64,000 nt of DNA from Candidatus Saccharimonadota bacterium (GCA_017459705.1 JAFUCJ010000005.1:7436-71435); one strand, 5' to 3'. Shown: positions 11,390 to 60,074, numbered from the stretch's first letter. Made by a program: numbers and translations. Notes: generated by a model not told the origin, from the letters alone.

Positions 11390-12472
11390 TCATTCTAGTA
11401 ACTTACACACCAGCGATACGATTAAGTGCTTCTCTTTTGGCTCACTTTCGGCGATAAGTAGCGCTATCGCAGTGAGTGCCCGGTCAGAAATCTTCGTCTC
11501 CCCCGCCTTAGTCAGATGGCAATCGTTTAGCGTTAAAAAGAAAATAAACAGTAGTGAGCCAATTCGTTTATTTCCGTCATAGAACGGATGGTCCTTGATG
11601 ATAAAATACAGCAAGTTCGCCGCTTTTTCCTGTACCGACGGATACAAATCCTTTCCGTCAAAACTCTGAAATATCGCGGCCAGACTCCCGTCAAACCCAC
11701 CACCGCGTTTCTTGCCAAACAAATCAGACCCGCGCACGCTACGTTTTAACTGAGCAACCGCCTGGTCGCACATTTCCGCCGTGAGTTCTTTCACCGACCG
11801 CGTCTTATTCAGAAAACGCAGATTAATCTTGCCGTCATCATATTCGGCCAAAGTCTTAAAGCTTCCCGCGTATCTCGAAATCACTTCCAGTACCCCATTC
11901 GCCTCGCCGGCGTCCAGTTCGCTCCGCGCCGTTAGTCGCCGCACTATGCCCATCATGTCCTCTACGTCGTGCAACTTCTTTATCTCTCGTCGCGCCGCAA
12001 GCTCCGCTACGCGCCGCTCGTTTACCACGACGCCAGTCGTGAGATACTTGCGAAGCACACTCGTCGCCCACACCCGAAACTGCGTCGCCTTCTTCGAATT
12101 CACCCGATATCCCACCGAGATAATCGCATCAAGATTATACACCCGTACCTTACGCTTTATCATACGGCCACCTTCGTTCTGAACTTGCAGTACTTCTTTA
12201 CAAGTCCGTTGCTGGACTATCAAATCTTCATCAGCAACTCCCCCAACTTGTTCCATTTTGGAACAAGTTCCATCCATACTGAGTTCCCCACTCTTGTATA
12301 TATTACCTAAGTGCTTCACGATTGCCGGACGTTGAACCCCGAAAATTTGTGCAATTTGTTCTGGCGTCGCCCAGACCGTCTCCCCGTCTGTATCTACATC
12401 AAAAACCACCTCGCCGGTTATTCCTCGGTATATCTCAATCTTCTTCTCTGTCGAGTTTGGGTCGCTCTCCAT
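11390..12472 (-). CDS. RhuM-like N-terminal domain fused to a Doc-type Fic domain
   Basis: The N-terminus (WATPEQIAQIFGVQRPAIVKHLGNIYKSGEL) is RhuM-like. The C-terminus carries HPFYDGNKRIG, matching the Doc motif HxFx(D/N)(A/G)NKR. Start set to the ATG at 12472 with an AAAGGAG RBS. Confidence 0.8.
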   Translation of the reverse strand: MESDPNSTEKKIEIYRGITGEVVFDVDTDGETVWATPEQIAQIFGVQRPAIVKHLGNIYKSGELSMDGTCSKMEQVGGVADEDLIVQQRTCKEVLQVQNEGGRMIKRKVRVYNLDAIISVGYRVNSKKATQFRVWATSVLRKYLTTGVVVNERRVAELAARREIKKLHDVEDMMGIVRRLTARSELDAGEANGVLEVISRYAGSFKTLAEYDDGKINLRFLNKTRSVKELTAEMCDQAVAQLKRSVRGSDLFGKKRGGGFDGSLAAIFQSFDGKDLYPSVQEKAANLLYFIIKDHPFYDGNKRIGSLLFIFFLTLNDCHLTKAGETKISDRALTAIALLIAESEPKEKHLIVSLVCKLLE

Positions 12473-12517
12473 CGCTTCTCCTTTCCCCAATTATATCATA
12501 TATGTTATAATAATCTC

Positions 12518-23771: not shown

Positions 23772-24347
23772 TCAGAGTTCAATTAAGCTGACAATTCGTC
23801 CGTTATCGTATTCGGCGAGGGCGTTTTGATATTTCCTGAATTCAGGAGTTTCGCGCTTTACGGCGGTATCTACTAATGGTAAGTCAAAACGCATTAGAAG
23901 TTCGGACAAAATAGCACGGATGGTGCGGCCATTGAAATCTTGGAACGGATGAACATGCAAGAATTCACCCTCGGCATAGGCTAAGGTTTCAATCTGTAAA
24001 TCTAGGGTGACAGATTTGTCTAGCCGAGCTTGCATATTGGCGACATACTCGTGCATTTTAATTGGTATCTCGTATGGTTCGGGCGGGAGCCAGTTGCCAA
24101 CCTGAACTGGCACATTGCGCCACTTACCTGCAATTCCGGGTATAATATCACCGATAATGCGAAAATGGAAGTTTTTGATTAAATCTTCATCAAAAGAATG
24201 GTTTATGAACTTGCAATCCGTAATGTCATCCAGTAACTGCAACAATTTCGGAGCAATTAAATCTGAAAGTTCGGCATAAGTAAGTTTGCCTTTGGTGGTA
24301 TCAAAAGTACGGGTAGTACTTTCTAGCGAGCGTTCTTCTGTAGCCAT
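23772..24347 (-). CDS. Fic domain protein (class I FicT-like toxin candidate)
   Basis: 191 aa with Fic motif HVHPFQDFNGRTIR. This matches the canonical HxFx(D/E)GNGRxxR except for G to F at position 6. Confidence 0.8.
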   Translation of the reverse strand: MATEERSLESTTRTFDTTKGKLTYAELSDLIAPKLLQLLDDITDCKFINHSFDEDLIKNFHFRIIGDIIPGIAGKWRNVPVQVGNWLPPEPYEIPIKMHEYVANMQARLDKSVTLDLQIETLAYAEGEFLHVHPFQDFNGRTIRAILSELLMRFDLPLVDTAVKRETPEFRKYQNALAEYDNGRIVSLIEL

Positions 24348-28087: not shown

Positions 28088-28858
28088 TTATTCCATGTCA
28101 GGTTCGATGTTAATAGTCACCCTGCCTATACTATCATGAGTGGCTATATCGACATTGGATAAATCCGTTTCAGCTTTTGTTCGCAACATTAAATGCGCGT
28201 AATGCATGCCATCAACACCTGCGCGCGCACTATCCAATGTCGGGATAACGCCATCGCCATAAGATTCTCCAAAGTAATAATACAAATCATTCCCGACTTC
28301 CAAATAATTATCTTTCGAAATGTTCATATGGGCAAGGGAGCTTCCATCTGTAAAGCTACCACCAGCCACAAACTCACCAGTAACCCAGTCATATTTCTGT
28401 GTAGGCGTAAAGCTCGCAAGCACTTTTACTTTGCCATTTGTGGAATTATCTTTTACAGATACCCAACTCCCCGGATTTTCTTTGACATGCACGATGGTGC
28501 CATCGGCAGGCTCATCTTCTATTACGGTGGTACAATTTGCGTCGGAATATATTCCTCCCGTTTCAAATTGTTTGCCAGTACTGTTATCGTCATGCTTGTA
28601 GATAACGCCATCGCAAGTTCGAGAAGATTCAAATCTGTACCTGTTGAGATCTTTTGCGTACTTCCAGTCAAAAGTCATACTGCCCCAATTAAGGTCCACC
28701 GAATAAACCGTTTCATCAATTTCTCCTACATAAGCGTCACGTGTGCCTGTGAAATACCCAGTATCGGGATCTCCGCCGAACGTCGCAGCGAACGCTCCAA
28801 AAGTCGGCATACTTGCCATGCTTAGGCAGGCGAGCCCACAAATAATAGTTTTTTTCAT
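28088..28858 (-). CDS. Secreted protein, unknown function
   Basis: Signal peptide MKKTIICGLACLSMASMPTFGAFA. RBS GAAAGGAGAAAC. First gene of a 3-gene operon. Confidence 0.55.
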   Translation of the reverse strand: MKKTIICGLACLSMASMPTFGAFAATFGGDPDTGYFTGTRDAYVGEIDETVYSVDLNWGSMTFDWKYAKDLNRYRFESSRTCDGVIYKHDDNSTGKQFETGGIYSDANCTTVIEDEPADGTIVHVKENPGSWVSVKDNSTNGKVKVLASFTPTQKYDWVTGEFVAGGSFTDGSSLAHMNISKDNYLEVGNDLYYYFGESYGDGVIPTLDSARAGVDGMHYAHLMLRTKAETDLSNVDIATHDSIGRVTINIEPDME

Positions 28859-28975: not shown

Positions 28976-29008
28976 GCAAATTTGAAGCAAATTTGAAGCA
29001 AATTTGAA
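28976..29008 (+). repeat. Three tandem 11-bp repeats GCAAATTTGAA overlapping the -35 of the downstream promoter
   Basis: Exact copies at 28976-28986, 28987-28997 and 28998-29008. The last supplies TTGAAT (29004-29009). Confidence 0.85.
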
Positions 29009-29032
29009 TAAAACATTCTTTTGTGCTACAAT
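29004..29032 (+). promoter_or_regulatory. Promoter TTGAAT-17-TACAAT (TGC-extended), 7 nt before the ATG at 29040
   Basis: -35 at 29004-29009, 17-nt spacer, TGCTACAAT with hexamer 29027-29032. No SD, so a leaderless start is likely. Confidence 0.55.
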
Positions 29033-29039
29033 ATCATGT

Positions 29040-30545
29040 ATGGAAGATGGACTTTCGAATCAAAAAATAGCACAAATCATTTTTAACTTCTCTAAAATGG
29101 ATAGCGAGCTAGAACACGTTGAGTTTAAAGTAAATCAGGCCGACTCAGAAATGATCGCAAAGAATATCTCTGCCATTACAAACTCAATGACCCGTCGCAA
29201 TTCTCCAAGAGGCTATATGGTTTGGGGGATCGATAATGCCAGCCATGAATTTGTTGGGACAAGCTTTAAGCCATATTCGGCGAAAGTTAGAAATAAAACC
29301 AAAGATAAGGAAAGTAATGAAGAGCTACTGGTGTGGTTATCTAAATATGTTAAGCCGTCTCCGAAGTTAGATGTTAGAGAGCTCGAAATAAACGGGAAGA
29401 GGGTCGTTGTTTTTATAATTACGTCAAATCCGTTGGAGCTCTCAAAGTTTCGAGGCAACGCTTTTATCCGCATCGGCGCTAATACTAGGCCACTTAATGA
29501 ATATCCATCCATCGAAAAAGAAGTCTGGTGCGAAATCCTCTCCAGGGAATTCGAGACAATTTCAGCAAAATCAAATTTATCAAAGGATGAAGTCGTTTCA
29601 CTGCTTGATTTTGATACTTTTTATACCATGCGACAAAATAGAGTGCACGTAGAACGTAGTCTTTTATTTACGGAGGCAATAAAATGTGGCATGATTAGGG
29701 ATAACCAAGATACGACCTACGATATAACCAATCTTGGTGCACTGTTATACGCCAAGAAATTAGATGACTTCTCGCAACTTTCTTCTAAAACTATGCGAAT
29801 TGTCCTATATCGAGGAAACTCGAAGCTCAACTTGATAAACGAAGAACGAAGCATAGGTGGGTATGTTGTTGAATTTAATCGTATTCATAACTATATTATG
29901 AACAAAGTTATTTCCGAGGATGTAATTGGTGAAGATGGGATACGGAGAGAAAAATATCTGTACCCGACGCTCACTGTACGCGAGTTACTCGCCAATACAA
30001 TCGTCCATCAGGACCTCTCCACAAACGTCATGCATCCCATGATAGAAATTTATTCAGATCGGATAGAATTCATCAATCCTGGCGCACCGCTAGTCCCAGA
30101 AGACAGATTTTTGGATTACCCGCCTCAGACCAGAAACCAAAGAATGGCCGAGGAATTTTATAGGGTAGGACTTTGTGAAATACAGGGATCCGGCTGGGAT
30201 AAGGTTGCTATCGAAGCAAGCGAGTTGAGCTTCCCCGCACCAAAGCCAGAAGTTACTCAGGATACGACCAGAATAATCCTGATGCAAGAAAAAACGCTCG
30301 CTAATATGACGAACGAAGAGCGTATGTGGTCACTTTATACGTTCGCATGCTTGCTGTGGGTCAAAAAGCAATTTCTTACGAACACCCTTGTAAGACAGCT
30401 TTTTCATATTCCAGACAATAATCTCTCTATGGCTTCTACTCTATTATCGCAAGCCGTAAAATCTGGACTGATTGTCGTTTTTGACGAACAGGCTGGCACG
30501 CGTAGCCGTAAATACATGCCGAAATACGTAAACGATGCATTCTAG
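29040..30545 (+). CDS. AlbA_2 (Schlafen-like) DNA-binding domain + HATPase_c_4-type ATPase-like domain protein, putative regulator
   Basis: N-terminus ELEHVEFKVNQ... (AlbA_2-like). The central TVRELLANTIVHQDL...IEFINPG pattern matches the family often annotated as a putative transcriptional regulator or RecG-like ATP-binding protein. Start set to MEDGLSNQ. Confidence 0.7.
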   Translation: MEDGLSNQKIAQIIFNFSKMDSELEHVEFKVNQADSEMIAKNISAITNSMTRRNSPRGYMVWGIDNASHEFVGTSFKPYSAKVRNKTKDKESNEELLVWLSKYVKPSPKLDVRELEINGKRVVVFIITSNPLELSKFRGNAFIRIGANTRPLNEYPSIEKEVWCEILSREFETISAKSNLSKDEVVSLLDFDTFYTMRQNRVHVERSLLFTEAIKCGMIRDNQDTTYDITNLGALLYAKKLDDFSQLSSKTMRIVLYRGNSKLNLINEERSIGGYVVEFNRIHNYIMNKVISEDVIGEDGIRREKYLYPTLTVRELLANTIVHQDLSTNVMHPMIEIYSDRIEFINPGAPLVPEDRFLDYPPQTRNQRMAEEFYRVGLCEIQGSGWDKVAIEASELSFPAPKPEVTQDTTRIILMQEKTLANMTNEERMWSLYTFACLLWVKKQFLTNTLVRQLFHIPDNNLSMASTLLSQAVKSGLIVVFDEQAGTRSRKYMPKYVNDAF

Positions 30546-30553
30546 CATTTTGC

Positions 30554-30689
30554 AATTTGCTTTGTGGTTGCTTCAAAAACATAAACGGAATTGGGAATTA
30601 ACAGAGGTAATTTGCTTTGTGGTTGCTTCAAAAACATAAACGGAATTGGGAATTAACAGAGGTAATTTGCTTTGTGGTTGCTTCAAAAC
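30554..30689 (+). repeat. 55-bp tandem repeat, 2.5 copies
   Basis: The unit AATTTGCTTTGTGGTTGCTTCAAAAACATAAACGGAATTGGGAATTAACAGAGGT occurs at 30554-30608 and 30609-30663, with a partial copy at 30664-30689. Each unit contains TTGCTTCAAA, the reverse complement of the upstream TTTGAAGCAA motif. Confidence 0.9.
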
Positions 30690-30759
30690 TACAAAGTATA
30701 GAAAACAATTTGATGGTACTTAAAACAACGATCTATGGAGAAAAACGCCGCACCAAAAT

Positions 30760-32649
30760 CTACCTACCACCCAAAATCCATTGAATCACTTGCCTTTTAA
30801 TTTCAAAATATTCATCTTTTTCAAATTGCATGTTGGCGATGCAGTATCTCTTATTAGTAATATGCGAGCAAAACATACATTCATGGAGCGAATTCGCATC
30901 TTGGATAAAAAACGAATTTGAGATTTTTCCAGAGCAAATCACATTGTATGAATTTGTACAATTCGCCGAGTCATCCACCCTGAGACAATAAGCACAGGCC
31001 CCGGACCGTTGTGATGCTACTGTATATTCCGAAGCGTGGCAAGAATCACAAAATGCGATGTTTTTGCAACGATTACAATTTGCACTGCGCCAGACTTTTT
31101 CACTTTCGTATACCGTGTCACTCTGTGCCACGTCCACCGAATTGAAATTTCTCTCAGTCGTCGTAAAGTTTGTTTCCCGCCAAATTTCAATTATGTCGTC
31201 TATGGATTCAACTTTTCGTTTCGGCAACATCCACGTTTCACGCTCGCTTTCATTTCTTTGCGTAATATACCTCGTAGAGTTCATGCTTTCCGCCCACGTT
31301 TCTTCACCGCTAATTGAATCATAAACCATCACTGCCGGCATCAACATTCCGCATCGCGACAACCTCGCCACTACATGACGATCCGGCAAAATTGCCAGCA
31401 ATCGCGCCTTTTCTCTCTGCGACGTATTGCCATCCTGAAATGTCGTCAACTTCGCGTCTGCAAATTCCGTCTGTTCCCCGCTACACAATTCTATATCCAA
31501 ATAATCCACCAGATGCTCCGCGTCATCATAATTCAGCCGAAAACAGAAATAATTCGCCACATTGGCATAGATTGCAGTTTTTAGTTCGTTGGAAATCTGT
31601 GTGTAATATTGTCCAGCTAGCACTACGGAAATATTATATTTTCGCGCTTCCGCCAAAAATCTCGTTAGCACTGGGTTTTCAACCACCGCAACTTCATCTA
31701 CTACGAGTATAATGTGCTCACTCAGTCTGCGTTGCATGCCCAGTGCAAAAAGTTGGTTCATAATGAGGCCAGCCAGGGTTTTTACCGCGCGCTCGCCATG
31801 CTTTGCGATATTTAGTGACACCAGAGTTACTTTATTCGTTACAATTTCGTATTCTAGCCGCCGACTATTTTGTCGGTAAATCGCCGGTGTCAGTTGTAGT
31901 TCATCTATCAGCGTCACCATGAGTGCAAAAGTCGCATCATGATATCGGGTTCTCAGTTCGTTGTAGTCCTGCCCAAAAAATTCTTGCAAACTTTCTGGCA
32001 GATATTTCTCCACACTCGCGAGCGTGATATTTTTGTATTGCGTATCAGTGAGCATTCTTCTGAGATTCTGTAAACTCAGCTCGCCTTTTTCTATCAGCGC
32101 ATATAAACAAGCCCGCGCCAAACGCTCCGCCATAGGATTCCAGCTCGTCGCAAGGGATTTCAATAGTCCTAGCATCATCTCTACGCTGTTTACGATATTT
32201 TCGCCATTCACAACGAACAGATCAAGTCCCCGGTCGCTATTTGTGTAGTCGAAAACTTTTACCTTGTCGCACCCGCCAATCTCATCTCTGAGCGCATCGT
32301 GCGGGTCTATCACGAGAAAATGATATTTGTCACCATAGTTTTCCATTGTTTCGCAGATAAAACTCGCTAAAAATTTGCTTTTCCCCGCCCCACTTGCTCC
32401 AAATACCGCTGTATGTTTATAAAAATCAATATCTTTTAATACAAGATAATGTTTTTCGTTGAAATACGGAAATTGCCTTAATTCCAAAATTGCTCCATTA
32501 GTTTCCGACGAGAACAACGACAAAGTTTTGGCCACGTTCAGATACTTCGGCGGCTTGGCCAGCACAAAAGCCTTCCGAAAGTCCAGATTTAGTATATCCG
32601 GCGTCGCGCCATGCAATCTCAGAATCTTTACGGAGCCGTTTTTCTCCAT
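30760..32649 (-). CDS. P-loop ATPase of the HerA/FtsK/VirD4-like (DUF87-type) class with a Cys-rich C-terminal domain
   Basis: Walker A FGASGAGKSKF and Walker B HIILVVDEVAV. The last ~125 aa carry many CxxC-like pairs and end ...KRYCIANMQFEKDEYFEIK. Confidence 0.7.
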   Translation of the reverse strand: MEKNGSVKILRLHGATPDILNLDFRKAFVLAKPPKYLNVAKTLSLFSSETNGAILELRQFPYFNEKHYLVLKDIDFYKHTAVFGASGAGKSKFLASFICETMENYGDKYHFLVIDPHDALRDEIGGCDKVKVFDYTNSDRGLDLFVVNGENIVNSVEMMLGLLKSLATSWNPMAERLARACLYALIEKGELSLQNLRRMLTDTQYKNITLASVEKYLPESLQEFFGQDYNELRTRYHDATFALMVTLIDELQLTPAIYRQNSRRLEYEIVTNKVTLVSLNIAKHGERAVKTLAGLIMNQLFALGMQRRLSEHIILVVDEVAVVENPVLTRFLAEARKYNISVVLAGQYYTQISNELKTAIYANVANYFCFRLNYDDAEHLVDYLDIELCSGEQTEFADAKLTTFQDGNTSQREKARLLAILPDRHVVARLSRCGMLMPAVMVYDSISGEETWAESMNSTRYITQRNESERETWMLPKRKVESIDDIIEIWRETNFTTTERNFNSVDVAQSDTVYESEKVWRSANCNRCKNIAFCDSCHASEYTVASQRSGACAYCLRVDDSANCTNSYNVICSGKISNSFFIQDANSLHECMFCSHITNKRYCIANMQFEKDEYFEIKRQVIQWILGGR

Positions 32650-34315: not shown

Positions 34316-37246
34316 ATGAAATTTGCATCGAGCTACGAACCGAGTCAGTTTGAACCAGATATTTACGCCGCCTGGGAGACGAGCGGTGCCTTCAAACCCA
34401 CCACACCCACAGTTCCCATTGATAACAATGACGACGGCATCGACGATCGATTTGAGACTGATGTGATACTAGCCGATTCGAGCGCATTTGCGACAACGGG
34501 AGCAAGCGACGAAGCGAGCCCCGTAACGACGGGCGCGAGCGAGGAGGCGCGAGAATCGGCTAGTATCACATCCAGGGACACCTATTCGATCGTTATGCCA
34601 CCACCCAATGCCAACGGCAATCTCCATATCGGCCACGGCCTTACTGTCGCCCTAGAAGATTCCCTTACTCGTTTCTATCGCTTGAATGGTAAATCCTCTT
34701 GGTACATTCCCGGCGCCGACCATGCCGGCTTTGAAACTTGGGTCGTCTACGAACGCACCCTAGAAAAAGACGGTCATACCCGTTTTGAATTCGACCGCGA
34801 CACTCTCTATGCGCGCGTCTGGGATTTCGTTGCCATGCAGCGTGGCAACATGGAGTTGCAACTCCGTGCTCTCGGCGCTTCTTGCTCCTGGGGTGACCTC
34901 ACCTTTACCCTGGACGAAAACGTCATCGATCGCGTTTACACCACTTTCGAAAAAATGTGGAACGACGGCCTTATCTATCGCGGCGAAAAACTCGTTAATT
35001 TCTGCCCCAAGCACCAAACCGCCTTCGCCGACATCGAAGTCGAGCATAAAGACGAAAAAGGCACCCTCTGGGAGATTGAGTATCCACTGATGAAAAATGA
35101 CGATGCGGACATTTTGCGAGCATTTGCAACAACGGAAGCAAACAACGAAGCTAGCCCCGTAACGACGGGTGTGAGCGAGGAGGCGAGCGAAATGCCTGTA
35201 TCGTCATGTATTATCGTAAGCACCACTCGCCCCGAAACCCTTTTCGGTGACATGGCTATCGCCGTCAACCCAGCCGATGACCGCTACAAACCTCTGATTG
35301 GTAAGCATGTCCACCTACCTCTCACCGACAGGACGATTCCTATTATCGCCGACGAACACGCCGACCCCGAGTATGGCACCGGCGCCGTCAAGATTACCCC
35401 TGCCCACGATTTCGATGATTTTGAAGTCGGCACCAGGCACGATTTAGATCGCCTCCAAGTCATAAGTGAGGACGGCCATATGATCAACGTTCCTGATAAA
35501 TACATAAGCCTCACCCCCACCGAATGTCGCAAACAAGTTCTAAAAGACCTCGAATCCGCAGGTCTGCTCCGCGGCGAACAAAAAATCACTCACAGCGTCG
35601 CTCATTGCTACAAGTGCGGCACCGTTCTCGAGCCAACCCTGAAAGAACAGTGGTTTGTCGACGTTAAGCGCCTGGCGAGTGATGCTATTAGGCACCTAGA
35701 ACAGGGCGAAATCACTTTCTACCCCGAAAACAAACAACGTGTCCTTATCAATTATCTCGAAAACTTAAAAGATTGGAACATTTCTCGTCAAATCCCTTGG
35801 GGTATTGCGATTCCTATGTTCAGAAAGGTTACAGAGGAAGCCACCGACGAGCCCGAATGGATTTTTGACCGCCGCACCAATCTCAAAACCATCGAGAAAT
35901 CCGGCGTTACCTACGTCCGCGACGAAGACACCTTTGATACTTGGTTCTCCTCTTCCCATTGGCCAATCGTCTGCACCGACTGGTCTGAGGACAATCCCAC
36001 TCCTTACTACCCACTCAATGTCATGGAAACCGGCGCCGACATCCTTTTTGCTTGGGTCGCCCGGATGATTATGATGGGGCTTTACGTTACCGGCGAAGTT
36101 CCATTCAAGGAAGTCTATCTCCATGGCCTTGTCCTCGACGCCCACGGCCAGAAAATGAGCAAATCCAAAGGTAACGTCATCAATCCGATGGACATGGTGG
36201 CAAGATATGGCTCAGATGCTTTCCGCCTAGGTATTCTCCGCGGTCGCTCGGCTGGCATGAACCAAGCATTTAGCGAAAACTCCGTTGTCTCTGGCCGCAA
36301 CCTCTGTAACAAACTCTGGAACATCTCTCGTCTCATTCAATCTGTGGTTGACGAAGACGAGGAAACAGAGCCACGAGGCGCATTTGCGACAACGGGAGCA
36401 AACGACGAAGCAAGCCCCGTAACGACGGGCGCGAGCGAGGAGGCGACGAGGGGCTCCGTTTCCTCATCTTATACGACCAACAACCAGGGCGAAGACTGGA
36501 TTTGCCGCGAGATTAACCAGTGTCTAGCAGACGTCGCGTCCGGCATGCACTCCTACCGCTTCTCTGAGGCCGTCGAGACCTTATACCAGACCATCTGGGA
36601 CAAATACGCCGATTGGTTCCTCGAATCCCAAAAAATCTACCGTAACGTCCCGCTTCTCAAAACCACGTTGGAGCACCTTCTGATTGCTCTCCATCCCTTT
36701 GCTCCCTTTGTCACCGAGGCTATCTGGCAAAACCTCAGTTGGACTTCCGGTATGATAATTAACGCCAAATGGCCCGGAGAGCTCATATACGACCCGATAA
36801 GCGCAACCGAATTCGAAAGCCTTATCTCAGTCGTCTCCGAAGTCAGGACCACCTTGCAGGCCCTACCAGGCACCAATAACGCCAAAAAATACGCACTACT
36901 ATTCGATAACGATAGTCTTGTTGAGGATAACCTGCTCCTTATCAAGGCTCTTACTAAGGTCCCCGCTGTCACCGCTTTAAACGGCGCCCCACGCGGCCTC
37001 CGCCTTGCCCTAGCCAACCACGAGCTTTACCTCGACGTCCCCGAGAAGGTCGTCAAGGACTACAAGGACGCCTTGACCGACAAAATCCTAGCCGTTGGTC
37101 GCGAGCTGGACGGTCTGAATGCCCGTATGCTAAATCCAAATTATGTCGATAAGGCCCCTGCCCACCTCGTCAAGGAAACCCAGGACGCCATCAAGGAAAA
37201 ATCCGACCTCATCTCCCGCCTGAAAACCCAACTTGAACTCATCTAG
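34316..37246 (+). CDS. valS: Valine--tRNA ligase, with three in-frame repeat insertions
   Basis: Class I motifs PPPNANGNLHIGH and KMSKSKGN, TTRPETLFGDMAIAVNP, and a C-terminal coiled coil. 976 aa. Confidence 0.95.
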   Translation: MKFASSYEPSQFEPDIYAAWETSGAFKPTTPTVPIDNNDDGIDDRFETDVILADSSAFATTGASDEASPVTTGASEEARESASITSRDTYSIVMPPPNANGNLHIGHGLTVALEDSLTRFYRLNGKSSWYIPGADHAGFETWVVYERTLEKDGHTRFEFDRDTLYARVWDFVAMQRGNMELQLRALGASCSWGDLTFTLDENVIDRVYTTFEKMWNDGLIYRGEKLVNFCPKHQTAFADIEVEHKDEKGTLWEIEYPLMKNDDADILRAFATTEANNEASPVTTGVSEEASEMPVSSCIIVSTTRPETLFGDMAIAVNPADDRYKPLIGKHVHLPLTDRTIPIIADEHADPEYGTGAVKITPAHDFDDFEVGTRHDLDRLQVISEDGHMINVPDKYISLTPTECRKQVLKDLESAGLLRGEQKITHSVAHCYKCGTVLEPTLKEQWFVDVKRLASDAIRHLEQGEITFYPENKQRVLINYLENLKDWNISRQIPWGIAIPMFRKVTEEATDEPEWIFDRRTNLKTIEKSGVTYVRDEDTFDTWFSSSHWPIVCTDWSEDNPTPYYPLNVMETGADILFAWVARMIMMGLYVTGEVPFKEVYLHGLVLDAHGQKMSKSKGNVINPMDMVARYGSDAFRLGILRGRSAGMNQAFSENSVVSGRNLCNKLWNISRLIQSVVDEDEETEPRGAFATTGANDEASPVTTGASEEATRGSVSSSYTTNNQGEDWICREINQCLADVASGMHSYRFSEAVETLYQTIWDKYADWFLESQKIYRNVPLLKTTLEHLLIALHPFAPFVTEAIWQNLSWTSGMIINAKWPGELIYDPISATEFESLISVVSEVRTTLQALPGTNNAKKYALLFDNDSLVEDNLLLIKALTKVPAVTALNGAPRGLRLALANHELYLDVPEKVVKDYKDALTDKILAVGRELDGLNARMLNPNYVDKAPAHLVKETQDAIKEKSDLISRLKTQLELI
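34461..34571 (+). mobile_element. Family-A in-frame hairpin element, copy 1 (111 nt)
   Basis: Arm ATGTGATACTAGCCGATTC...GAATCGGCTAGTATCACAT is perfectly complementary over 19 nt. The 66-nt core (34484-34549) encodes AFATTGASDEASPVTTGASEEA. Confidence 0.75.
35097..35207 (+). mobile_element. Family-A in-frame hairpin element, copy 2 (111 nt)
   Basis: Arms ATGACGATGCGGACATTT / AAATGCCTGTATCGTCAT are imperfectly complementary. The core (35120-35185) encodes AFATTEANNEASPVTTGVSEEA. Confidence 0.7.
36354..36470 (+). mobile_element. Family-A in-frame hairpin element, copy 3 (117 nt)
   Basis: Arms AAGACGAGGAAACAGAGCC / GGCTCCGTTTCCTCATCTT. The core (36380-36445) encodes AFATTGANDEASPVTTGASEEA. Confidence 0.7.
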
Positions 37247-37692: not shown

Positions 37693-37889
37693 TGAACTAA
37701 CAATCGCCCACCTCACACAGCGATTGGGAGATCCCGCAAGGATCTGTTTGATGAACCGCCAGCAGACAACGCTGTTGGCAACCGAAATCAAGTCGACCCG
37801 GACAGCAAAACGCTTCACGGAAAATATGGCTATGTACTAAAAAACATAAGCAGTCAAATTTTTGCATGTCGGGCGGGGCAGGAAAACAG

Positions 37890-38969
37890 ATGAAAATACC
37901 AATTACGCAGACGAAAAAATGGCAAAAATTACAGCAGGATTTAGGCAATAAAACTTTTTTTGAGAAAAAATCAGACTTCGAGTATTTAGCCATCGAGAAG
38001 CACACCCCAGTAGGGAATTACCTTTTTCTTCCTTATGGACCAGTGGCGAAAAGTGACCAAGGATTTCTAGATGCGATTAATTCGCTGATTGATTTAGCGA
38101 GGAATCATCGCTGCATTTTTATCCGCCTCGAACCGCAAGACGCCGCTTATCGCGCCCTCCTTCCTATGAACAGCAAAAAAGTCAAAGATGTCGAACCGGC
38201 AGAGACCTGGGTACTAGATTTGCCAGATATTTCCACCGCGGACCCGCTGGATGATCAATCCATAAAAGCCCTCCTCCCGTCACGCCTACTTCGCTATTAC
38301 AAGAACATGGCAAAGCAGGGAATCACCATCGAAAAATCCCACGACCCAGCCGATATTCACTACCTTGTCGAGCTCCAATCTGCCCTCGCCGCCGAGAAAG
38401 GCATCACGACTTTCACCGCGGACTACTTAAAAACCGAGCTCGAGCAAGACTTCGCAACCCTCTACCTATTGTTGCAGCATATGTCGCCCGCAATGCTTGC
38501 ATCGACGGGTGACGCCGCTTGGGGGACCCCCACGCCAGCGCGCGTGGGGGAAAATGCGGCGACAGGACCCGTCGAGTGTAGCGACGACAGGACCCGTCAG
38601 GATGCTCCCTCGGCGGCAGGACCCGTCGAGACTGACGTTGATCATGTCCTTGCCGCCGGCCTCGTTTTTGACGACGCCACCACCCGTTACAATCTTCAAG
38701 GCGCCCAATCCGAAACCGGCAGGAAACTGCACGCCACCGGCATCCTTACCATCGAGCTCATCCTCGACGCCGTACAGAACGGTCAAAAAACCTTCGATTT
38801 CTGGGGTATTGCTCCCGAGGGGGCGCCAGCTACGCACCCCTGGGCTGGCTTCACCGCCTTTAAGAAAACTTTCGCTGGCCGCGAGGTCAAATACGCCGGC
38901 ACTTACGATTTACCCACCGACCCTTTGAGATATCGCCTTTATCAGTTCCTTCGCAGATTCCGCCATTAG
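37890..38969 (+). CDS. FemAB family peptidoglycan aminoacyltransferase (FemX-like), with a GC-rich in-frame insertion
   Basis: Start set to MKIPITQTKKWQKLQQ...YLFLPYGP (typical FemX-like N-terminus). The C-terminus FDFWGIAP...FKKTFAG is family-like. Confidence 0.8.
   Translation: MKIPITQTKKWQKLQQDLGNKTFFEKKSDFEYLAIEKHTPVGNYLFLPYGPVAKSDQGFLDAINSLIDLARNHRCIFIRLEPQDAAYRALLPMNSKKVKDVEPAETWVLDLPDISTADPLDDQSIKALLPSRLLRYYKNMAKQGITIEKSHDPADIHYLVELQSALAAEKGITTFTADYLKTELEQDFATLYLLLQHMSPAMLASTGDAAWGTPTPARVGENAATGPVECSDDRTRQDAPSAAGPVETDVDHVLAAGLVFDDATTRYNLQGAQSETGRKLHATGILTIELILDAVQNGQKTFDFWGIAPEGAPATHPWAGFTAFKKTFAGREVKYAGTYDLPTDPLRYRLYQFLRRFRH
38503..38631 (+). mobile_element. Family-B in-frame GC-rich hairpin element (one full unit plus two extra right-arm copies)
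   Basis: TCGACGGGTGACGCCGC...GGGGGACCCCC...GCGGCGACAGGACCCGTCG (38503-38575), followed by GACGACAGGACCCGTCA and GGCGGCAGGACCCGTCG. Confidence 0.65.
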
Positions 38970-54151: not shown

Positions 54152-54223
54152 ACATAAACACTACGGAGCTGGTACCCATGGTGCCAGCTCCACCATATCA
54201 GCAGGGAAAGGAGAGCCAACAAA

Positions 54224-54901
54224 ATGAGTAAGCGCCAAATAATCAGTCTTGCTATCACTAGTGGCATTGTCGCTAGCAGTTTTGTTGTCTGTCCTGTCTT
54301 TGCTGAGGAAACAGTGGATATCGAAATTGTCGAGGTGGTAGATGATGGCAATGGTAATTTCAGTCCATGGCAGGACATCACAGGGGCCATGCCGGGAGAA
54401 ACTTATAGTGCGATACCACGGGTGAGAAATGACGGCACAGTGCCGACCGAAGTGTCAATGTGTCTCTCGGAATCAGTAGTTTATGCTTCTGGCGAAACGC
54501 ACGTCTTGACGACCAACGCCTTTGAGATTGAAATTGACCCGAACTGGACGCTAGACCATGAAGCAAATCAGCCAGGCATAACCTTGGGAGATTGTTATAA
54601 ATATAATTCGGCTATCAACGCCGGCAACGTGAGCGAACCACTGTTTCGCGAAGTTAAATTAAACGCTTCGCTCGGCAACGAGTACGAAAGCGCCACTTTC
54701 ACCTTGCACCTAGACGCCAGGGGCATCAGTAGTGAGGCTATACCGGTACCAGATTCCGGTGCCGAGGATACTGGCGCCCCGGACACCGGCAGAAACACCT
54801 CGTCCTATCTCGAAATCGTCAGCCCGGTATTCTATACCGCTGGTATTTTAGCTTTTCTCGCGGCATTATCTTTCTTATGTCGCCGCCTCCTCCGCAAGTA
54901 G
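54224..54901 (+). CDS. Surface protein with a Sec signal peptide and a C-terminal anchor (sorting-signal-like)
   Basis: Signal peptide ending VFAEE. Camelysin-like core (GAMPGETYSAIPRVRNDGTVP). C-terminus EDTGAPDTG...hydrophobic helix...CRRLLRK. Confidence 0.6.
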   Translation: MSKRQIISLAITSGIVASSFVVCPVFAEETVDIEIVEVVDDGNGNFSPWQDITGAMPGETYSAIPRVRNDGTVPTEVSMCLSESVVYASGETHVLTTNAFEIEIDPNWTLDHEANQPGITLGDCYKYNSAINAGNVSEPLFREVKLNASLGNEYESATFTLHLDARGISSEAIPVPDSGAEDTGAPDTGRNTSSYLEIVSPVFYTAGILAFLAALSFLCRRLLRK

Positions 54902-56604: not shown

Positions 56605-59600
56605 ATGAAATACAGAGCCGGAGAGCGCCTTAGGGCCATAGAGTACGAGAAGTCACTCACTGAGTGGTGGAAAAAGAACAAAACTTTTGAGAAATCTATC
56701 GAGAATCGTCCGATTGATAAATCTTACGTCTTCTATGATGGCCCCCCGTTCATTACCGGTATGCCGCACCACGGCACACTTCTCAGCTCTATTGTAAAAG
56801 ACGCCGTCCCACGTTACTGGACCATGCAAGGCTGCCGCGTTGAGCGTCGTTGGGGCTGGGATTGCCACGGTCTCCCCGCCGAGAACTTCGTCGAGAAGCA
56901 GCTCGGCATTACTGACCGTCGCGACATTGGCACCAAATGGTCCCTCGAAGATTACATCATCAAGGCTCGCGAATCCATGGTCGCGAACTCCGAACTCTGG
57001 CGCGCCACCATCGACCGCGTCGGCCGTTGGGTGGATTTCGACAACTGCTACCGCACCATGAACAAGGATTTTATGGAGTCCGTCTGGTGGGCCTTCAAGA
57101 AATTATACGAAGCAGGGAAGATCTACGAGGGTCGCAAAGTCCTGATGTACGACACGAAATTTGCCACCCCGGTCAGCAAAGCCGAAGTCACTATGGACAA
57201 CGATGCCTACCAAACCGTCACCGACCCATCCGCCTACGTCAAATTCAAACGCCAGGATGCCGACGAGTATTTCTTGGCCTGGACCACTACCCCCTGGACT
57301 CTCATGGCCAACCGCGCTTTGGCTGTGAGTCCCGACATGGACTACGTCAAAGTCAAAGTTGGCGACGAGATCTACATTGTGGCAAAATCCCGCCTCGAAG
57401 CAGTTTTTGGCGACGCGGAGTATACCTTATTATCCGGGCGGGTGACGGCTGCGGAGGGGGACCCCCGCCGAGCCTGCGAGGTGGGGGAGGACAGCAGCCG
57501 GCAGGACCCGCCCTATATATTAAAGGGTAGCGACCTCGCCGGCCTCAAATACAAATCTATCGACGGCACTATTTGCCAGGTTTTCACCGCTGATTTTGTA
57601 GGCAATGAAGAGGGTACCGGCATCGTCCATATCGCCCCCGCCTACGGCGAAGACGACTACGATCTGTATCTGAAACATGCCGCAACGGACGACAAAACCA
57701 TGTCCGGGCAGGTGACGGCTGCGGAGGGGGAGGGCGTCACTCGGCAGGACCCGCCCCGTATTTCGTTTGTCGACACTCTCGACGAGAACGGCTATTATCT
57801 ACCAGAGTACGCCGCCAAGCTCCATGCCCTCGGCGTCCGCGACACCGACGAACACGGCATCCAGATTTGGGCCGCCAACAAGTTTATCGCGAAATGCCTT
57901 GAAGAACAGAGAATCATTTACAAAATCGAATACATCCAGCACGAATATCCATTTAATCCACGTTCCAAGGAACGCATTATGTACCGCGCTTTCCCAAGCT
58001 GGTTCTTTGACATAGAGGGGCAAAAACCTCTCATGCTAGCCGAGAACGAAAACATCAACTGGTTCCCAGCCTACTTGAAGCACGGCCGCTTCGCGAAGAA
58101 CATCGAAGCCGCCCCTGATTGGAACCTCTCCCGCGACCGTTTCTGGGCTACCGCCATGCCGGTCTGGAAAGGCGAAAAAACCGGCGCTATCAAAGTATTT
58201 GGCTCCTACGCAGAGCTTAAAGAATACTCCGGCAAAGAGCTAGATGACTACCACCGCCCATGGGTAGACGAGATAGAATTCGACGCTTATGTTGAGAATG
58301 GAAAGGTTATCTCAAAAAATGCCTTATCTGCAACTTTTGAGACCGTGTCCCGAAATCCTCACGAGGATTTCGAAGTGAGCGAGCCCCGTGACGACGGGCG
58401 CGAGCGAACGGGGTCGAAAAAGTTACAGGAAGGCATTTCCGAGTTAGACCATTTCACTCGTATCGAAAAAGTCCTCGACTGTTGGTTCGAGTCCGGCTCC
58501 ATGCCTTTCGCTCAGCTTCATTACCCATTTGAAAACAAGGACAAATTCGAGCGAAATTACCCCGCCGACTTCATCGTCGAATACGTCGGCCAAGTCCGCG
58601 CTTGGTTCTATTATGTTCATACGGTCAACACAGCCCTCGCCGAAATCGGCGCTTTTGGTGAAAAAGCAAAGCGCGGCCACAAGAACGCCTACAAAAACGT
58701 CATTACTACTGGTACCCTCGCAGGGAACGACGGCCGCAAAATGAGCAAATCTCTTGGCAACTACACCGACCCGAATGTCCTGATGGACACCTACTCGGCC
58801 GACGCCCTTCGCTTCCTCCTCCTCAGCAGCCCAGTCCTCTCTGGCGAAGATTTCGCCCTGCTCGACAAGGATGTCTCTGATGTCAACCGCAAGCTCGCTA
58901 TGCTCTGGAATGTTTACGACTTCTTCGTGACTTACGCCGAGATTGAGGGCTGGGATTCTGAGAATTCATGGCGTCCAGCTACCAAAGGTTTAGATTCACT
59001 CAAAAACCCGCTCGATGTCTGGATTATCTCGCGCTTGCATCAGACCAAGGCCAAAATCATTAACGGCATGTCCGAATACAATATCCCCAAAGCGCTAGAA
59101 GACGTCCTGCCGTTTATAGATGATCTCAGCAACTGGTTTGTTCGCCGCTCGCGCCGCCGCTTCAGCAAAAACGACGATCAAGAAGACAAAAACGAGGCTT
59201 TCTGGACTCTTTATACCGTTCTTGTAAAAACTGCTCAAGTTCTCGCTCCGTTTACCCCATTTCTTTCGGAGGAACTTTACCAAAAAATGACCGGCTCTAG
59301 CGAGTCAGTCCACCTTCTAGATTATCCTCAGGCAACCGAAGTAGATAGCGAGGTTCTGGAGAACATGACTCGCACTCGCACCATCATTACCGATGCACTC
59401 GCTCTCCGTATGCACAAGTCCGACACCGAGGCCCAGATTAAAGTCCGTCAACCCCTAAGTAGGCTCACCTACCTAGGCGACAAACTCGACGATTTCTACG
59501 AGCGGATCATTGCCGACGAAGTCAACGTGAAACAGGTCGAAAACGGCGATTCGCTCACACTCGACAAAACTATCACCCCCGAACTAGCCAAAGAGGGCTA

Positions 59601-59826
59601 CGCTCGCGATCTTGTTCGCGCAATTCAATCTGCTCGCAAGAATGCCAAACTTATGATGGACGACCGCATTAAGCTGTCCCTCTCGGTTGCTCTCCCCGAA
59701 GGCTACGAAGATTACGTCCTCACCGAATCCCAGGCCGACTCGTTCGAGCTTGGCGCCAACTACGCCCACGACGAAATCGCCAAAGTAAACGGCGAAAACC
59801 TCACTATCTCACTGGAAAAATCGTAA
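56605..59826 (+). CDS. ileS: Isoleucine--tRNA ligase, with three in-frame GC-rich insertions
   Basis: Class I motifs PPFITGMPHHGT and KMSKSLGN. 1073 aa. TGATATAAT (hexamer 56593-98) lies 6 nt before the ATG, with no SD. Confidence 0.95.
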   Translation: MKYRAGERLRAIEYEKSLTEWWKKNKTFEKSIENRPIDKSYVFYDGPPFITGMPHHGTLLSSIVKDAVPRYWTMQGCRVERRWGWDCHGLPAENFVEKQLGITDRRDIGTKWSLEDYIIKARESMVANSELWRATIDRVGRWVDFDNCYRTMNKDFMESVWWAFKKLYEAGKIYEGRKVLMYDTKFATPVSKAEVTMDNDAYQTVTDPSAYVKFKRQDADEYFLAWTTTPWTLMANRALAVSPDMDYVKVKVGDEIYIVAKSRLEAVFGDAEYTLLSGRVTAAEGDPRRACEVGEDSSRQDPPYILKGSDLAGLKYKSIDGTICQVFTADFVGNEEGTGIVHIAPAYGEDDYDLYLKHAATDDKTMSGQVTAAEGEGVTRQDPPRISFVDTLDENGYYLPEYAAKLHALGVRDTDEHGIQIWAANKFIAKCLEEQRIIYKIEYIQHEYPFNPRSKERIMYRAFPSWFFDIEGQKPLMLAENENINWFPAYLKHGRFAKNIEAAPDWNLSRDRFWATAMPVWKGEKTGAIKVFGSYAELKEYSGKELDDYHRPWVDEIEFDAYVENGKVISKNALSATFETVSRNPHEDFEVSEPRDDGRERTGSKKLQEGISELDHFTRIEKVLDCWFESGSMPFAQLHYPFENKDKFERNYPADFIVEYVGQVRAWFYYVHTVNTALAEIGAFGEKAKRGHKNAYKNVITTGTLAGNDGRKMSKSLGNYTDPNVLMDTYSADALRFLLLSSPVLSGEDFALLDKDVSDVNRKLAMLWNVYDFFVTYAEIEGWDSENSWRPATKGLDSLKNPLDVWIISRLHQTKAKIINGMSEYNIPKALEDVLPFIDDLSNWFVRRSRRRFSKNDDQEDKNEAFWTLYTVLVKTAQVLAPFTPFLSEELYQKMTGSSESVHLLDYPQATEVDSEVLENMTRTRTIITDALALRMHKSDTEAQIKVRQPLSRLTYLGDKLDDFYERIIADEVNVKQVENGDSLTLDKTITPELAKEGYARDLVRAIQSARKNAKLMMDDRIKLSLSVALPEGYEDYVLTESQADSFELGANYAHDEIAKVNGENLTISLEKS
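57433..57513 (+). mobile_element. Family-B in-frame hairpin element, long form (81 nt)
   Basis: TCCGGGCGGGTGACGGCTGC...GGGGGACCCCC...GCAGCCGGCAGGACCCGCCC with nested stems GGGCGGGT/ACCCGCCC and CGGCTGC/GCAGCCG. Encodes SGRVTAAEGDPRRACEVGEDSSRQDPP. Confidence 0.7.
57703..57756 (+). mobile_element. Family-B in-frame element, short form (54 nt)
   Basis: TCCGGGCAGGTGACGGCTGCGGAGGGGGAGGGCGTCACTCGGCAGGACCCGCCC. Encodes SGQVTAAEGEGVTRQDPP. Confidence 0.65.
58351..58419 (+). mobile_element. Family-A-related in-frame element (partial core) read in a different frame
   Basis: 10-bp hairpin CGAAATCCTC-AC-GAGGATTTCG, then CGAAGTGAGCGAGCCCCGTGACGACGGGCGCGAGCGA (about 90% identical to the right half of the valS core), then ACGGGGTCGAAA pairing back. 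Encodes ...VSEPRDDGRERTG. Confidence 0.6.
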
Positions 59827-59838
59827 TATTTGAGGATG

Positions 59839-60074
59839 GAGGCCTGGTAACCCATTTTTGGGGCATTAAATAGATTTGGGTCGTTGTAGTTTTTACAATG
59901 GCCCAGTCATGCGGGCGGAACTGCTGTATTATATAAGCAGTTCTTTTTTTCGTGTGCGTGGAATGATGTATTAATAGGAATATAGCCATTACCGGCTAGG
60001 GAGCCCGCATCTGACGGACCTTGTAAAAACCACAACTCTCCAAGTCCAGCTCCAAAAATGGGTTGCTAGGCCTC
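59839..60074. repeat. 236-bp imperfect inverted repeat (MITE-like or long RNA hairpin) enclosing the ileS terminator
   Basis: The left arm (59839-59916) and right arm (60003-60074) are complementary in blocks of 23 nt (2 mismatches) and 16 nt (1 mismatch) plus TGCGGGC/GCCCGCA. Confidence 0.7.
59918..59950 (+). terminator. Intrinsic terminator of ileS
   Basis: GAACTGC-loop-GCAGTTC followed by T7. Confidence 0.8.

Follow-up and report, generated by a model that had tools for sequence, protein, structure and literature searches.

The 64,000-nucleotide (nt) stretch of a Candidatus Saccharimonadota (Saccharibacteria, TM7) genome (GCA_017459705.1, JAFUCJ010000005.1:7436-71435) that was analysed in full, hereafter the window, carries at positions 34316-37246 on the + strand the valS gene, which encodes a valine--tRNA ligase (ValRS) of 976 residues recognizable by the Pfam domains tRNA-synt_1 (4e-105), Anticodon_1 and Val_tRNA-synt_C and by its match to the Thermus thermophilus ValRS 1GAX (7e-150); a deposited valine--tRNA ligase of a Candidatus Saccharibacteria bacterium is identical to it. 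An earlier note on this DNA had described three near-identical palindromic insertions within valS and had read them as lineage-specific, in-frame mobile elements comparable to the Rickettsia palindromic elements (RPEs). Our experiments in silico support that reading, as an analogy and not as membership of the RPE family, and they also reveal a further family member in the ileS gene of the window, as well as flanking stem sequences that are specific to each copy and yet complementary within it.

The repeated part of the insertions is a 79-nt sequence present three times in valS (34477-34555, 35113-35191 and 36373-36451) with an identity of 84-85%. The 17-mer AGCCCCGTAACGACGGG has exactly three occurrences in valS and a further one, carrying one mismatch, at 58382, when 0.09 matches would be expected by chance and none of 100 shuffles reaches four. 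The valS reading frame remains open through all three copies, which are read in the same frame as AFATTGA(S/N)(D/N)EASPVTTG(A/V)SEEA, and the internal duplication of the core around a CCCGT-AACG-ACGGG hairpin is present as described. The lengths given previously (111, 111 and about 117 nt) also hold, the segments 34461-34571 and 35097-35207 both beginning with ATG and ending with CAT, and so do the host sites: copy 1 lies before PPPNANGNLHIGH (the HIGH motif), copy 2 before STTRPET and copy 3 after NKLWN. Base composition calls for a milder statement, for the elements are richer in GC (0.60-0.68) than their surroundings (about 0.45-0.55), yet not as much richer as had been claimed. Within the valS elements both GC skew and AT skew switch from the negative or neutral values of the gene to strongly positive ones, so that the elements are compositionally foreign to their host.

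A covariance model, R1, built from an alignment of 33 copies with what we call the S2-type head, finds exactly four members in the window, all on the + strand, three of them in valS and one in an ileS-like gene. Copy 1, with an S2-type head, is matched at 34456-34576 (122.8 bits, E 3e-29); its hairpin spans 34460-34572 with the head at about 34484-34549, its arms (34460-34485 and 34547-34572) are 92% complementary, its predicted RNA fold reaches -64 kcal/mol (z -8.4), and its peptide, TDVILADSSAFATTGASDEASPVTTGASEEARESASI, stands directly ahead of the PPPN/HIGH motif. Copy 2, whose head is the most diverged, is matched at 35092-35212 (94.9 bits, E 5e-22) and coincides with inverted repeat I5; its hairpin (about 35089-35215, z -5.5) encodes ...NDDADILRAFATTEANNEASPVTTGVSEEASEMPVSSC, which LWEIEY and IIVSTTRPET flank where the editing domain is entered. 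Copy 3 (36352-36472, 107 bits, E 4e-25; inverted repeat I2) forms a hairpin at about 36354-36470 (z -3.8) and encodes ...EETEPRGAFATTGANDEASPVTTGASEEATRGSVSS, 3' of NKLWNISRLIQ and 5' of the anticodon-binding helical domain. A peptide such as ...ADSSAFATTGASDEASPVTTGASEEARESA... would span a junction of host and element. The fourth copy, at 58315-58441 on the + strand (66.5 bits, E 1e-14; repeat family D2; fold z -4.2), lies inside an ileS-like gene for a class I aminoacyl-tRNA synthetase of 1073 residues (56605-59826, + strand; Pfam tRNA-synt_1 5e-110, Anticodon_1), which also hosts two GC-rich hairpins of another kind, family B below. This copy has a hairpin 2 and a closing stem like those of the valS copies together with a different hairpin 1 (CCCGAAATCCTCACGAGGATTTCG), and it is translated in the other open sense frame (..EPRDDGRER..). 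A scan of the window against Rfam 15 at the gathering threshold returned just four tRNAs and no family for the elements.

The unit common to all of these copies is a whole hairpin of about 111-127 nt. From the outside inward, a closing stem of 20-27 base pairs (bp) is followed by a tandem G.A/A.G motif (5'-YGAG/CGAR-3'), by 3-4 covarying pairs and by a head of about 65 nt; the closing stem is made up of a variable outer part, a semi-conserved GAAAT/ATTTC and a variable inner part, and the tandem G.A/A.G motif that follows reads TTCGAG/CGAGAA. The head itself has two parts, hairpin 1, which varies and falls into a small number of subtypes, and hairpin 2 (GAGCCCCGTRACGACGGGCGCGAGC), which is invariant. 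Within each copy the two sides of the closing stem are complementary; from copy to copy their sequences are unrelated. In the RNAalifold structure of the 33 S2-type copies 93.1% of the cells are paired, compared with 33-43% when the partners are slid by 1-3 columns, and cells in which both sides have changed in a compensatory manner number 213, compared with 42-58 after sliding, a value that 0 of 500 shuffles match. All 14 pairs of the closing helix covary (14/14); columns 14 and 108, for instance, hold AU in 17 copies, UA in 10, CG in 5 and GC in 1, and are broken in none. Folding with DNA parameters gives about equal stabilities for the two strands (-35.6 vs -33.3 kcal/mol), these nearest-neighbour parameters missing sheared G.A pairs. 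The idea that the stems might be random or spacer-like captured sequence was rejected, the head-aligned stems having a weak positional consensus in the two motifs named above (GAAAT/ATTTC and TTCGAG/CGAGAA), and no stem arm was found repeated elsewhere in the window.

Head and stem follow markedly different evolutionary courses. Where two copies agree in at least 95% of the head, as happens in 417 pairs, their variable stem columns have an identity of only 0.33-0.41, and 6 of these pairs have similar stems; copies 1 and 3 of the window's valS have heads 97% identical and stems 28% identical. When resident copies are compared, i.e. in 20 orthologous pairs occupying the same site in different species with flanks 78% identical, the divergence per nt is 0.447 for the stem, 0.22 for the flanks and 0.114 for the head, and the stem changes comprise 118 compensated doubles, 40 singles and 11 broken doubles. 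By these values the head is constrained, whereas the stem changes at a roughly neutral rate and yet remains paired. That doubles exceed singles would be explained either by a very efficient selection for pairing or by a correction of one arm by the other, e.g. by template switching within quasi-palindromes, a process established in Escherichia coli. Homogenization of heads by gene conversion is not supported, given a head identity of 0.77 within assemblies and 0.74 between them; moreover, a genome-specific head variant in assembly CAZOPB remains different as far as the stem junction, so that homology in the flanks is absent.

The relation of the elements to reading frames is equally telling. 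Both orientations and five of the six frames are in use, and about 85% of the copies are intragenic, about 17-19 (about 15%) being intergenic. Ninety-seven of 116 distinct copies lie inside open reading frames (ORFs) of at least 150 residues, all of them open: 28 are read in sense frame 1 (AFATTGA..SPVTTGAS), 44 in sense frame 3 (..RDNGS..EPRNDGR..), 25 in antisense and none in sense frame 2, which has a TAA or TGA in the loop of hairpin 2. No ORF of at least 80 codons runs into that loop stop in any of the 116 copies, while about 36 would be expected if frame were a matter of indifference. The genic copies have lengths that preserve the host frame and, as read, would add hydrophilic insertions of about 30-42 residues, the peptides of both open sense frames being hydrophilic and poor in Cys. 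The disuse of the stop frame indicates that the element is translated and not removed, and genic copies would seem to be tolerated only where a ribosome can read through them. Conversely, the use of two sense frames and of the antisense strand places the conservation at the level of DNA and not of peptide; identical DNA is read in several ways, and other genomic copies abound.

The 120 closest ValRS orthologues (69-81% identity) show how these insertions are distributed within a single essential protein. Their lengths range from 868 to 1086 residues and all large differences fall at four sites, hot spots of gain and loss, namely query residues 47-84 (occupied in 40 of the 120), 260-297 (43), around 505 (8) and 685-717 (96), with 31-44 residues typically added per site; at least one site is filled in 108 of the proteins and none in 12. 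The minimal orthologues of 868 residues are devoid of all three segments and read ...DDRFE-xxxxx-YSIVMPPPN, ...LWEIAY-DD-IIVSTTRPET and ...IVDE-GGPLG-SYTT at the corresponding positions, so just 'DD' at the site of copy 2; copy 1 is missing from P0003, P0013, P0062 and others. Aligned with 1GAX, the query forms the blocks 87-257, 298-674 and 738-973, and the inserts of the window fall in the breaks between blocks. The sites are thus consistent with permissive linkers, and from the alignment breaks and the natural variation in length we infer that the inserts occupy surface loops; an AlphaFold2 model of ValRS with 37 orthologues was too poor to map loops (mean predicted local distance difference test score 47) and was not used. 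The segments are accordingly lineage-specific insertions, as the earlier note had proposed, and the orthologues do not display the alternative pattern, in which one and the same peptide would recur at these sites with synonymous-rich conservation while copies elsewhere were lacking.

Relatives carry at least four further head families at the same ValRS sites, of the SPAEHKDLARAARSVSEGHA, EPGKARSSAETPVATGVSD and GAFRSAAARDLAPSARGDGPDG types along with a long type of about 170 nt (ISKHCAGANSHF...CEPSTLRN), in loci L118/L119, L201/L202/L121, L203/L204 and L122 at site 3 and in L203 at site 1. All of them combine a copy-specific stem with a conserved head, which in the first three types has two hairpins, and this shared architecture at shared sites places the family found in the window, family A, within a superfamily. 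P0002 and P0003 have, at site 2, a common outer stem (GAAGGCRAA/TTTGCCTTC) with different heads, which hints at replacement of heads or nesting inside existing hairpins.

Beyond the window, more than 117 loci in a species-representative genome collection contain the conserved 25-mer of hairpin 2. They represent at least 69 assemblies, the count for the first 105 loci, and lie between genes as well as inside many genes unrelated to one another. All the matches listed belong to Candidatus Saccharibacteria, many of them labelled Ca. Nanosyncoccus, with the exception of two short contigs, and the host samples are sheep, goat, buffalo, yak and other gut or rumen material. Model R1 finds 144 matches in 732 kb of the matched loci, about 44 of them outside the seeds, a density that corresponds to tens of copies per genome of about 1 Mb; each genome thus probably contains tens of elements. 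The model has no match in valS loci of distant relatives (at most 58% amino acid identity), a scan of viral contigs with the core sequence found none either, and a metagenome scan for valS relatives yielded just five close loci. The two exceptions, of 2.4 and 5.1 kb, are Firmicutes-binned contigs with typical elements, L011 (JAZQJE01, 'Acutalibacteraceae') and L038 (CAZRGP01, 'Faecalibacterium'); as L038 is orthologous to the Saccharibacteria loci L014 and L068, both contigs look like binning errors, and the element could serve to mark mis-binned contigs of Saccharibacteria. Judged by these searches, the family is restricted to gut and rumen Candidatus Saccharibacteria, apart from these two probably mis-binned contigs.

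Two observations bear on mobility, which the earlier note had claimed. In assembly CAZOPB, the loci L072 and L081, on different contigs, have in common a block of about 124 nt (GTTTAYC...head...GATAAAC) with sharp edges and unrelated flanks, whence the complete hairpin, stem included, is the moving unit; all five differences between the two (5/5) are stem transitions and the head of about 70 nt has none. Secondly, the valS alleles P0003 and P0013 are 97.9% identical and their sole difference is an 87-nt indel at site 2, the ends of which lie at an imperfect direct repeat, GCGAA/GCAAA, within the stem, the short allele retaining a 10-bp remnant hairpin. P0013 (L119/L207) there carries a head-less remnant, AGAAGGCAAA-TTACCCAG-TTTGCCTTCT, where P0003 has a full element; this shows how an element decays to a short extra loop, which may explain orthologues of intermediate length such as P0082. 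A comparison over 23 kb of the strains concerned, L206 and L207, revealed no further hairpin polymorphism, only gene-sized islands being different. The indel, which comprises the head and one arm, also raised the idea that one arm is an inverted copy of the host target; this was rejected because the empty alleles of other pairs lack both arms and because in L072/L081 the whole hairpin moves.

The elements are also strand-polar. On what we term the '+' strand of the element, the closing stem has more G.T than A.C pairs, the ratio being 67:39 for sense copies, 25:10 for those antisense to their host gene and 17:2 for those between genes (109:51 in total), and the tandem G.A pairs are present on this strand only. 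In 111 of 134 copies the DNA strand that bears '+' is the one locally richer in C (p ~5e-15), and this holds for 28 of the 29 antisense and for 18 of the 19 intergenic copies; what the orientation tracks is the C-rich strand and not the direction of genes. That the G.T bias and the C-rich association hold across contexts implies that the folded form is one specific strand, independently of host transcription, and points to single-stranded DNA (while the element inserts or excises, or by way of a differential loss of hairpins from one template strand), the host mRNA being a less fitting candidate. The window's + strand is strongly C-rich regardless of gene direction, with a GC skew of about -0.2 throughout (-0.02 to -0.23 in the 4-kb bins). 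The genes dnaN and recF normally lie on the leading strand beside oriC; their presence at the start of the window (510-1610 and 1616-2617) suggests that its + strand is the leading one.

Taken together, these findings lead us to favor, with fair though incomplete confidence, the interpretation that family A is a non-autonomous, MITE-like (miniature inverted-repeat transposable element) and strand-specific mobile hairpin that behaves like the RPEs. The data show that the element lands anywhere in the genome and that genic copies occur only where the frame is open and their length preserves the host frame; in ValRS this has taken place repeatedly at the four hot spots. As for the mechanism, the active form would be the '+' strand alone, a hairpin-folded single strand whose polarity is fixed and most likely single-stranded DNA, acted upon in trans by a structure-specific enzyme encoded elsewhere, similar to those of IS200/IS605 or of the REP-RAYT system (repetitive extragenic palindromic sequences and their associated tyrosine transposase). 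Such an enzyme would recognize the head through its sequence and the stem through nothing but its shape, a mode of recognition that would explain near-identical heads next to drifting yet paired stems. Pairing could be upheld by selection or by arm-to-arm templated correction, as in template switching within the hairpin. Finally, insertions would be filtered by their compatibility with translation, and the hydrophilic, Cys-poor nature of the sense peptides may explain the 3:1 excess of sense copies.

Several points nevertheless weigh against this mobile-hairpin interpretation. No transposase, HUH or reverse transcriptase domain is found among the approximately 47 ORFs of the window, and a tblastn search of 1.0 Mb of related DNA with TnpA and RAYT (HUH) sequences, admittedly a weak test, gave no match. 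No insertion event was caught, the only near-isogenic polymorphism being the P0003/P0013 indel, which its direct-repeat ends make better read as a slippage deletion than as an insertion. No direct-repeat target-site duplication accompanies L072 and L081, flanked by TA..TA and TG..CA; this fits 'peel-and-paste' transposition of single-stranded DNA, in a single case. That the inserts are translated is something we infer from frame statistics. Resident heads are kept about four times better than stems and twice better than the flanking coding DNA, which is unexpected for purely selfish, decaying copies and hints at a constraint in situ, and the extreme contrast between head and stem (97% vs 28% within the window; 5/5 differences in the stem of L072/L081) is not accounted for quantitatively. 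Lastly, leading and lagging strands cannot be assigned to the polarity, since some Candidate Phyla Radiation (CPR; some Microgenomates) genomes are C-rich on one strand along the whole chromosome, a disparity that the window resembles (PMC7143001). A more elaborate version, which we regard as a tentative and on balance improbable proposal, sees in the hairpins not merely passive RPE-like parasites but a new class of strand-polar single-stranded DNA elements whose two-hairpin head is under continuing constraint in resident copies, whose long stem is held in perfect pairing by arm-to-arm copying (template switching or snap-back resynthesis at each move) instead of slow compensatory selection, and whose new heads preferentially replace old ones in existing hairpins, giving rise to the ValRS hot spots. 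Should it be true, Saccharibacteria would possess an undescribed machinery for hairpin-specific mobilization or repair, and in these ultra-small bacteria essential proteins would be supplied with new peptide loops continually and on a large scale.

Of the competing explanations, the less improbable ones assign a function to the folded element. One holds that it is a structured DNA element useful to the host, which would serve the chromosome as a polar signal or as a site where a protein binds (e.g. in replication, segregation, recombination or uptake) and would be kept by selection wherever it is tolerated, genes included. Polarity independent of gene direction (111/134), a head that is nucleotide-invariant across frames and the retention of head (0.114) and stem pairing (118 compensated vs 40 single changes) in orthologous resident copies over speciation are what such a signal would produce, but so would strand-specific transposition or differential loss of hairpins on one template strand in the case of polarity, and the free presence or absence of the element among close relatives (12 of the 120 ValRS orthologues are without any, and 87 nt were lost between 98%-identical strains) is hard to reconcile with it, as is the coexistence of many head families that replace each other at the same sites. 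Insertion into essential enzymes would also be costly without obvious logic, and known polar signals such as KOPS and Chi are 8-mers; we therefore hold this explanation to be unlikely. The covariation is, on the other hand, typical of functional RNAs, and with the G.U pairs tolerated on one strand, the tandem sheared G.A pairs and the 72-86 genic copies in sense orientation it might be taken to denote a cis-acting structured motif of mRNAs spread by duplication and selected as RNA, for instance a site for RNase III or another protein that affects stability or translation; stems of 20-27 bp have the length of RNase III substrates. This we consider quite unlikely, because about a quarter of the genic copies are antisense and show the same bias of G.T over A.C (25:10) along with the strongest association with strand asymmetry (28/29), about 15% of the copies are intergenic, Rfam offers no match, and a perfect 22-bp stem in valS would expose an essential mRNA to cleavage.

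Explanations at the level of the gene product fare worse. An intervening sequence removed after transcription or during translation, be it intron-like, bulge-helix-bulge-like, a ribosomal bypass or a mini-intein, would be served by a long stem that brings the host junctions together, and CPR bacteria are known for unusual insertions in their rRNA genes; yet frame should then not matter, whereas the stop frame is used in 0 of 116 copies against about 36 expected and all genic copies keep their ORF open, and neither intein motifs in the approximately 37 residues nor an Rfam intron or ribozyme match was found, which renders it very unlikely. The three valS copies do share a frame and nearly the same peptide of 22 residues, and the sense frames are hydrophilic and Cys-poor, as might be expected of a protein module that selection favors for what it does in ValRS and in other proteins, the DNA repeat being a by-product of recent duplication; this notion is, however, effectively refuted by the use of the same DNA in frame 1 (28), in frame 3 (44), in antisense (25) and between genes, by a conservation of every nucleotide that is not synonymous-rich, and by adjoining stem-encoded residues that vary freely provided that the DNA arms pair. 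As to an artefact of assembly or binning, the window does come from a metagenome-assembled genome, and repeats can mislead assemblers into chimeras. Each copy has, however, a unique stem and unique flanks, so that there is nothing ambiguous to assemble, and the insertions recur with evolutionary variation and compensatory changes at orthologous sites in at least 69 assemblies from different studies and assemblers, all genic copies keeping their frames open; such an artefact, which the earlier note had itself raised, is refuted for practical purposes.

These findings do not only concern mobile DNA but also the proteins that harbor it. Owing to the elements, the lengths of proteins from close relatives vary by up to 25%, which matters whenever CPR proteins are annotated, assigned to orthologous groups, used in phylogenomics or subjected to structure prediction, and the hot spots mark positions at which class I aminoacyl-tRNA synthetases tolerate insertions of 30-90 residues. 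Since the arms of a translated DNA must pair, arms and encoded residues co-vary, thereby providing a natural experiment. Strand polarity and the contrast in rate between head and stem point to a single-strand, structure-specific mobilization, the enzyme of which could be of interest to biotechnology.

Other features of the window deserve mention. Very GC-rich in-frame hairpins of a family B, with the motifs GGGCGGGTGACGGCTGCGGAGGGGGA...CGGCAGGACCCGCCC, occur twice in ileS (57430-57515 and 57700-57760) and once or twice in a FemAB-like ORF (37866-38969, at 38500-38635); they encode peptides such as ...AATGPVECSDDRTRQDAPSAAGPVETD..., fold with z of -2.7 to -3.3 and are not matched by R1. Two hairpins of 105-110 nt with arms of 17-27 nt, at 54198-54306 (over the start of ORF 54224-54901) and at 28145-28247 (inside ORF 28088-28858), have DNA folds with z of about -2.8 to -2.9, are richer in AT, lack the family A head and may be unrelated or decayed elements. 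Just downstream of ileS, an imperfect inverted repeat at 59873-60046 (44-nt arms, 73% complementary and 86 nt apart) may be another hairpin element or a terminator region. Between a Schlafen/AlbA_2-like ORF (29004-30545) and a HerA-like ORF (30760-32649) lies an intergenic tandem repeat (30554-30718) of a 55-nt unit, AATTTGCTTTGTGGTTGCTTCAAAAACATAAACGGAATTGGGAATTAACAGAGGT, with two perfect copies and a partial third. Genes for Fic/DOC-domain proteins at 11390-12490 and 23772-24347, both on the - strand and one fused to a RhuM-family domain, flank a cell-envelope polysaccharide cluster (13.3-25.3 kb) whose GC content of 0.38-0.39 is below that of the rest of the window.

In the open-access full-text literature we found no description of such elements in Saccharibacteria or in the CPR, an absence that is not proof, and the main comparative paper on mammalian Saccharibacteria makes no mention of such repeats; the family is large and apparently undescribed. 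Known systems resemble it in part. Like MITEs, it is a small, multi-copy, non-coding unit with presence/absence polymorphism and unrelated flanks, as seen in L072/L081 and in the variable occupancy of sites, but it does not have the conserved terminal inverted repeats that match a parent insertion sequence (IS), stem identity being about 0.33 where heads are at least 95% identical and no parent IS having been seen. ERIC, Correia/NEMIS, Coxiella QMITE1 and BOX are likewise small, non-autonomous repeats with inverted ends that are occasionally read through in ORFs (PMC10969869, PMC2229807). Those repeats, however, have sequence-conserved terminal inverted repeats and target-site duplications and are mainly intergenic, whereas here the copies are intragenic and their termini unconserved. 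REPINs (Bertels and Rainey) are hairpins of about 100 nt. REPs and REPINs share with the present family that they are short hairpin repeats with tens to hundreds of copies per genome, a single-copy HUH enzyme, RAYT, being their presumed mobilizer (PMC3733652). The differences are that REPs are extragenic by definition, whereas about 85% of the copies here are intragenic; that REPIN arms are conserved (REP sequences, GTAG/CGTC tag) and the loop varies, the reverse of a conserved apical head; and that no RAYT was found in the window ORFs or, by the weak test above, in the 1.0 Mb of related DNA.

The 'peel-and-paste' transposition of the IS200/IS605 family (PMC10055086) involves strand-specific recognition of hairpins, leaves no target-site duplication and mobilizes non-autonomous copies in trans. 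The MITEs derived from this family (PATEs), moved by the HUH enzyme TnpA of the Y1 type, are similar to our elements in their hairpins folded on one strand and in their strand and orientation bias, which is evident here (109:51; 111/134); the one clean pair of our elements shows no target-site duplication either, and mobilization in trans would be a further parallel. Their ends, however, are two different subterminal hairpins flanking a body, in contrast to one long hairpin with a conserved apical head; no TnpA was found here, again by the weak test, and a conserved target tetra- or pentanucleotide is not established. Organelles with small genomes may have few repair functions. Their GC-rich palindromes, such as the mitochondrial GC clusters in var1 of yeast and those of Volvox and Lobosphaera, also invade coding sequence in frame in small genomes (PMC4524435), but they belong to eukaryotic organelles, are much shorter and have no two-hairpin head.

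The closest parallel is offered by the RPEs, palindromic in-frame repeats of several families that a reduced genome carries within its essential genes (Ogata et al. 2000, summarised in PMC10969869). Both kinds of element are palindromic repeats of about 100-150 nt (111-127 nt here) with many in-frame copies in unrelated and often essential genes of a reduced-genome bacterium, both are read as an extra peptide compatible with protein function, and both comprise several families without a known cognate transposase. They differ in that the present elements are used in two sense frames and in antisense, have a copy-specific covarying stem and a near-invariant head, and are oriented with respect to the DNA strand. 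To our knowledge, none of these features has been reported for RPEs. A copy-specific, covarying stem joined to a conserved apical head, the use of several frames and of both orientations, a location that is intragenic in about 85% of copies and a strong strand polarity together set the family apart from RPEs, classical MITEs and REPs/REPINs alike. As the elements belong to Candidatus Saccharibacteria, a phylum unrelated to the Rickettsiales, and have no evident sequence relationship with RPEs, the RPE consensus sequences not having been compared directly, they are best called RPE-like and not RPEs. If so, a massive colonization of essential genes by in-frame hairpins would have arisen independently in the Candidate Phyla Radiation and not just in Rickettsia, of which it has so far been a textbook curiosity, and this points to a general outcome of genome reduction, with its loss of repair and defence functions and its small populations.

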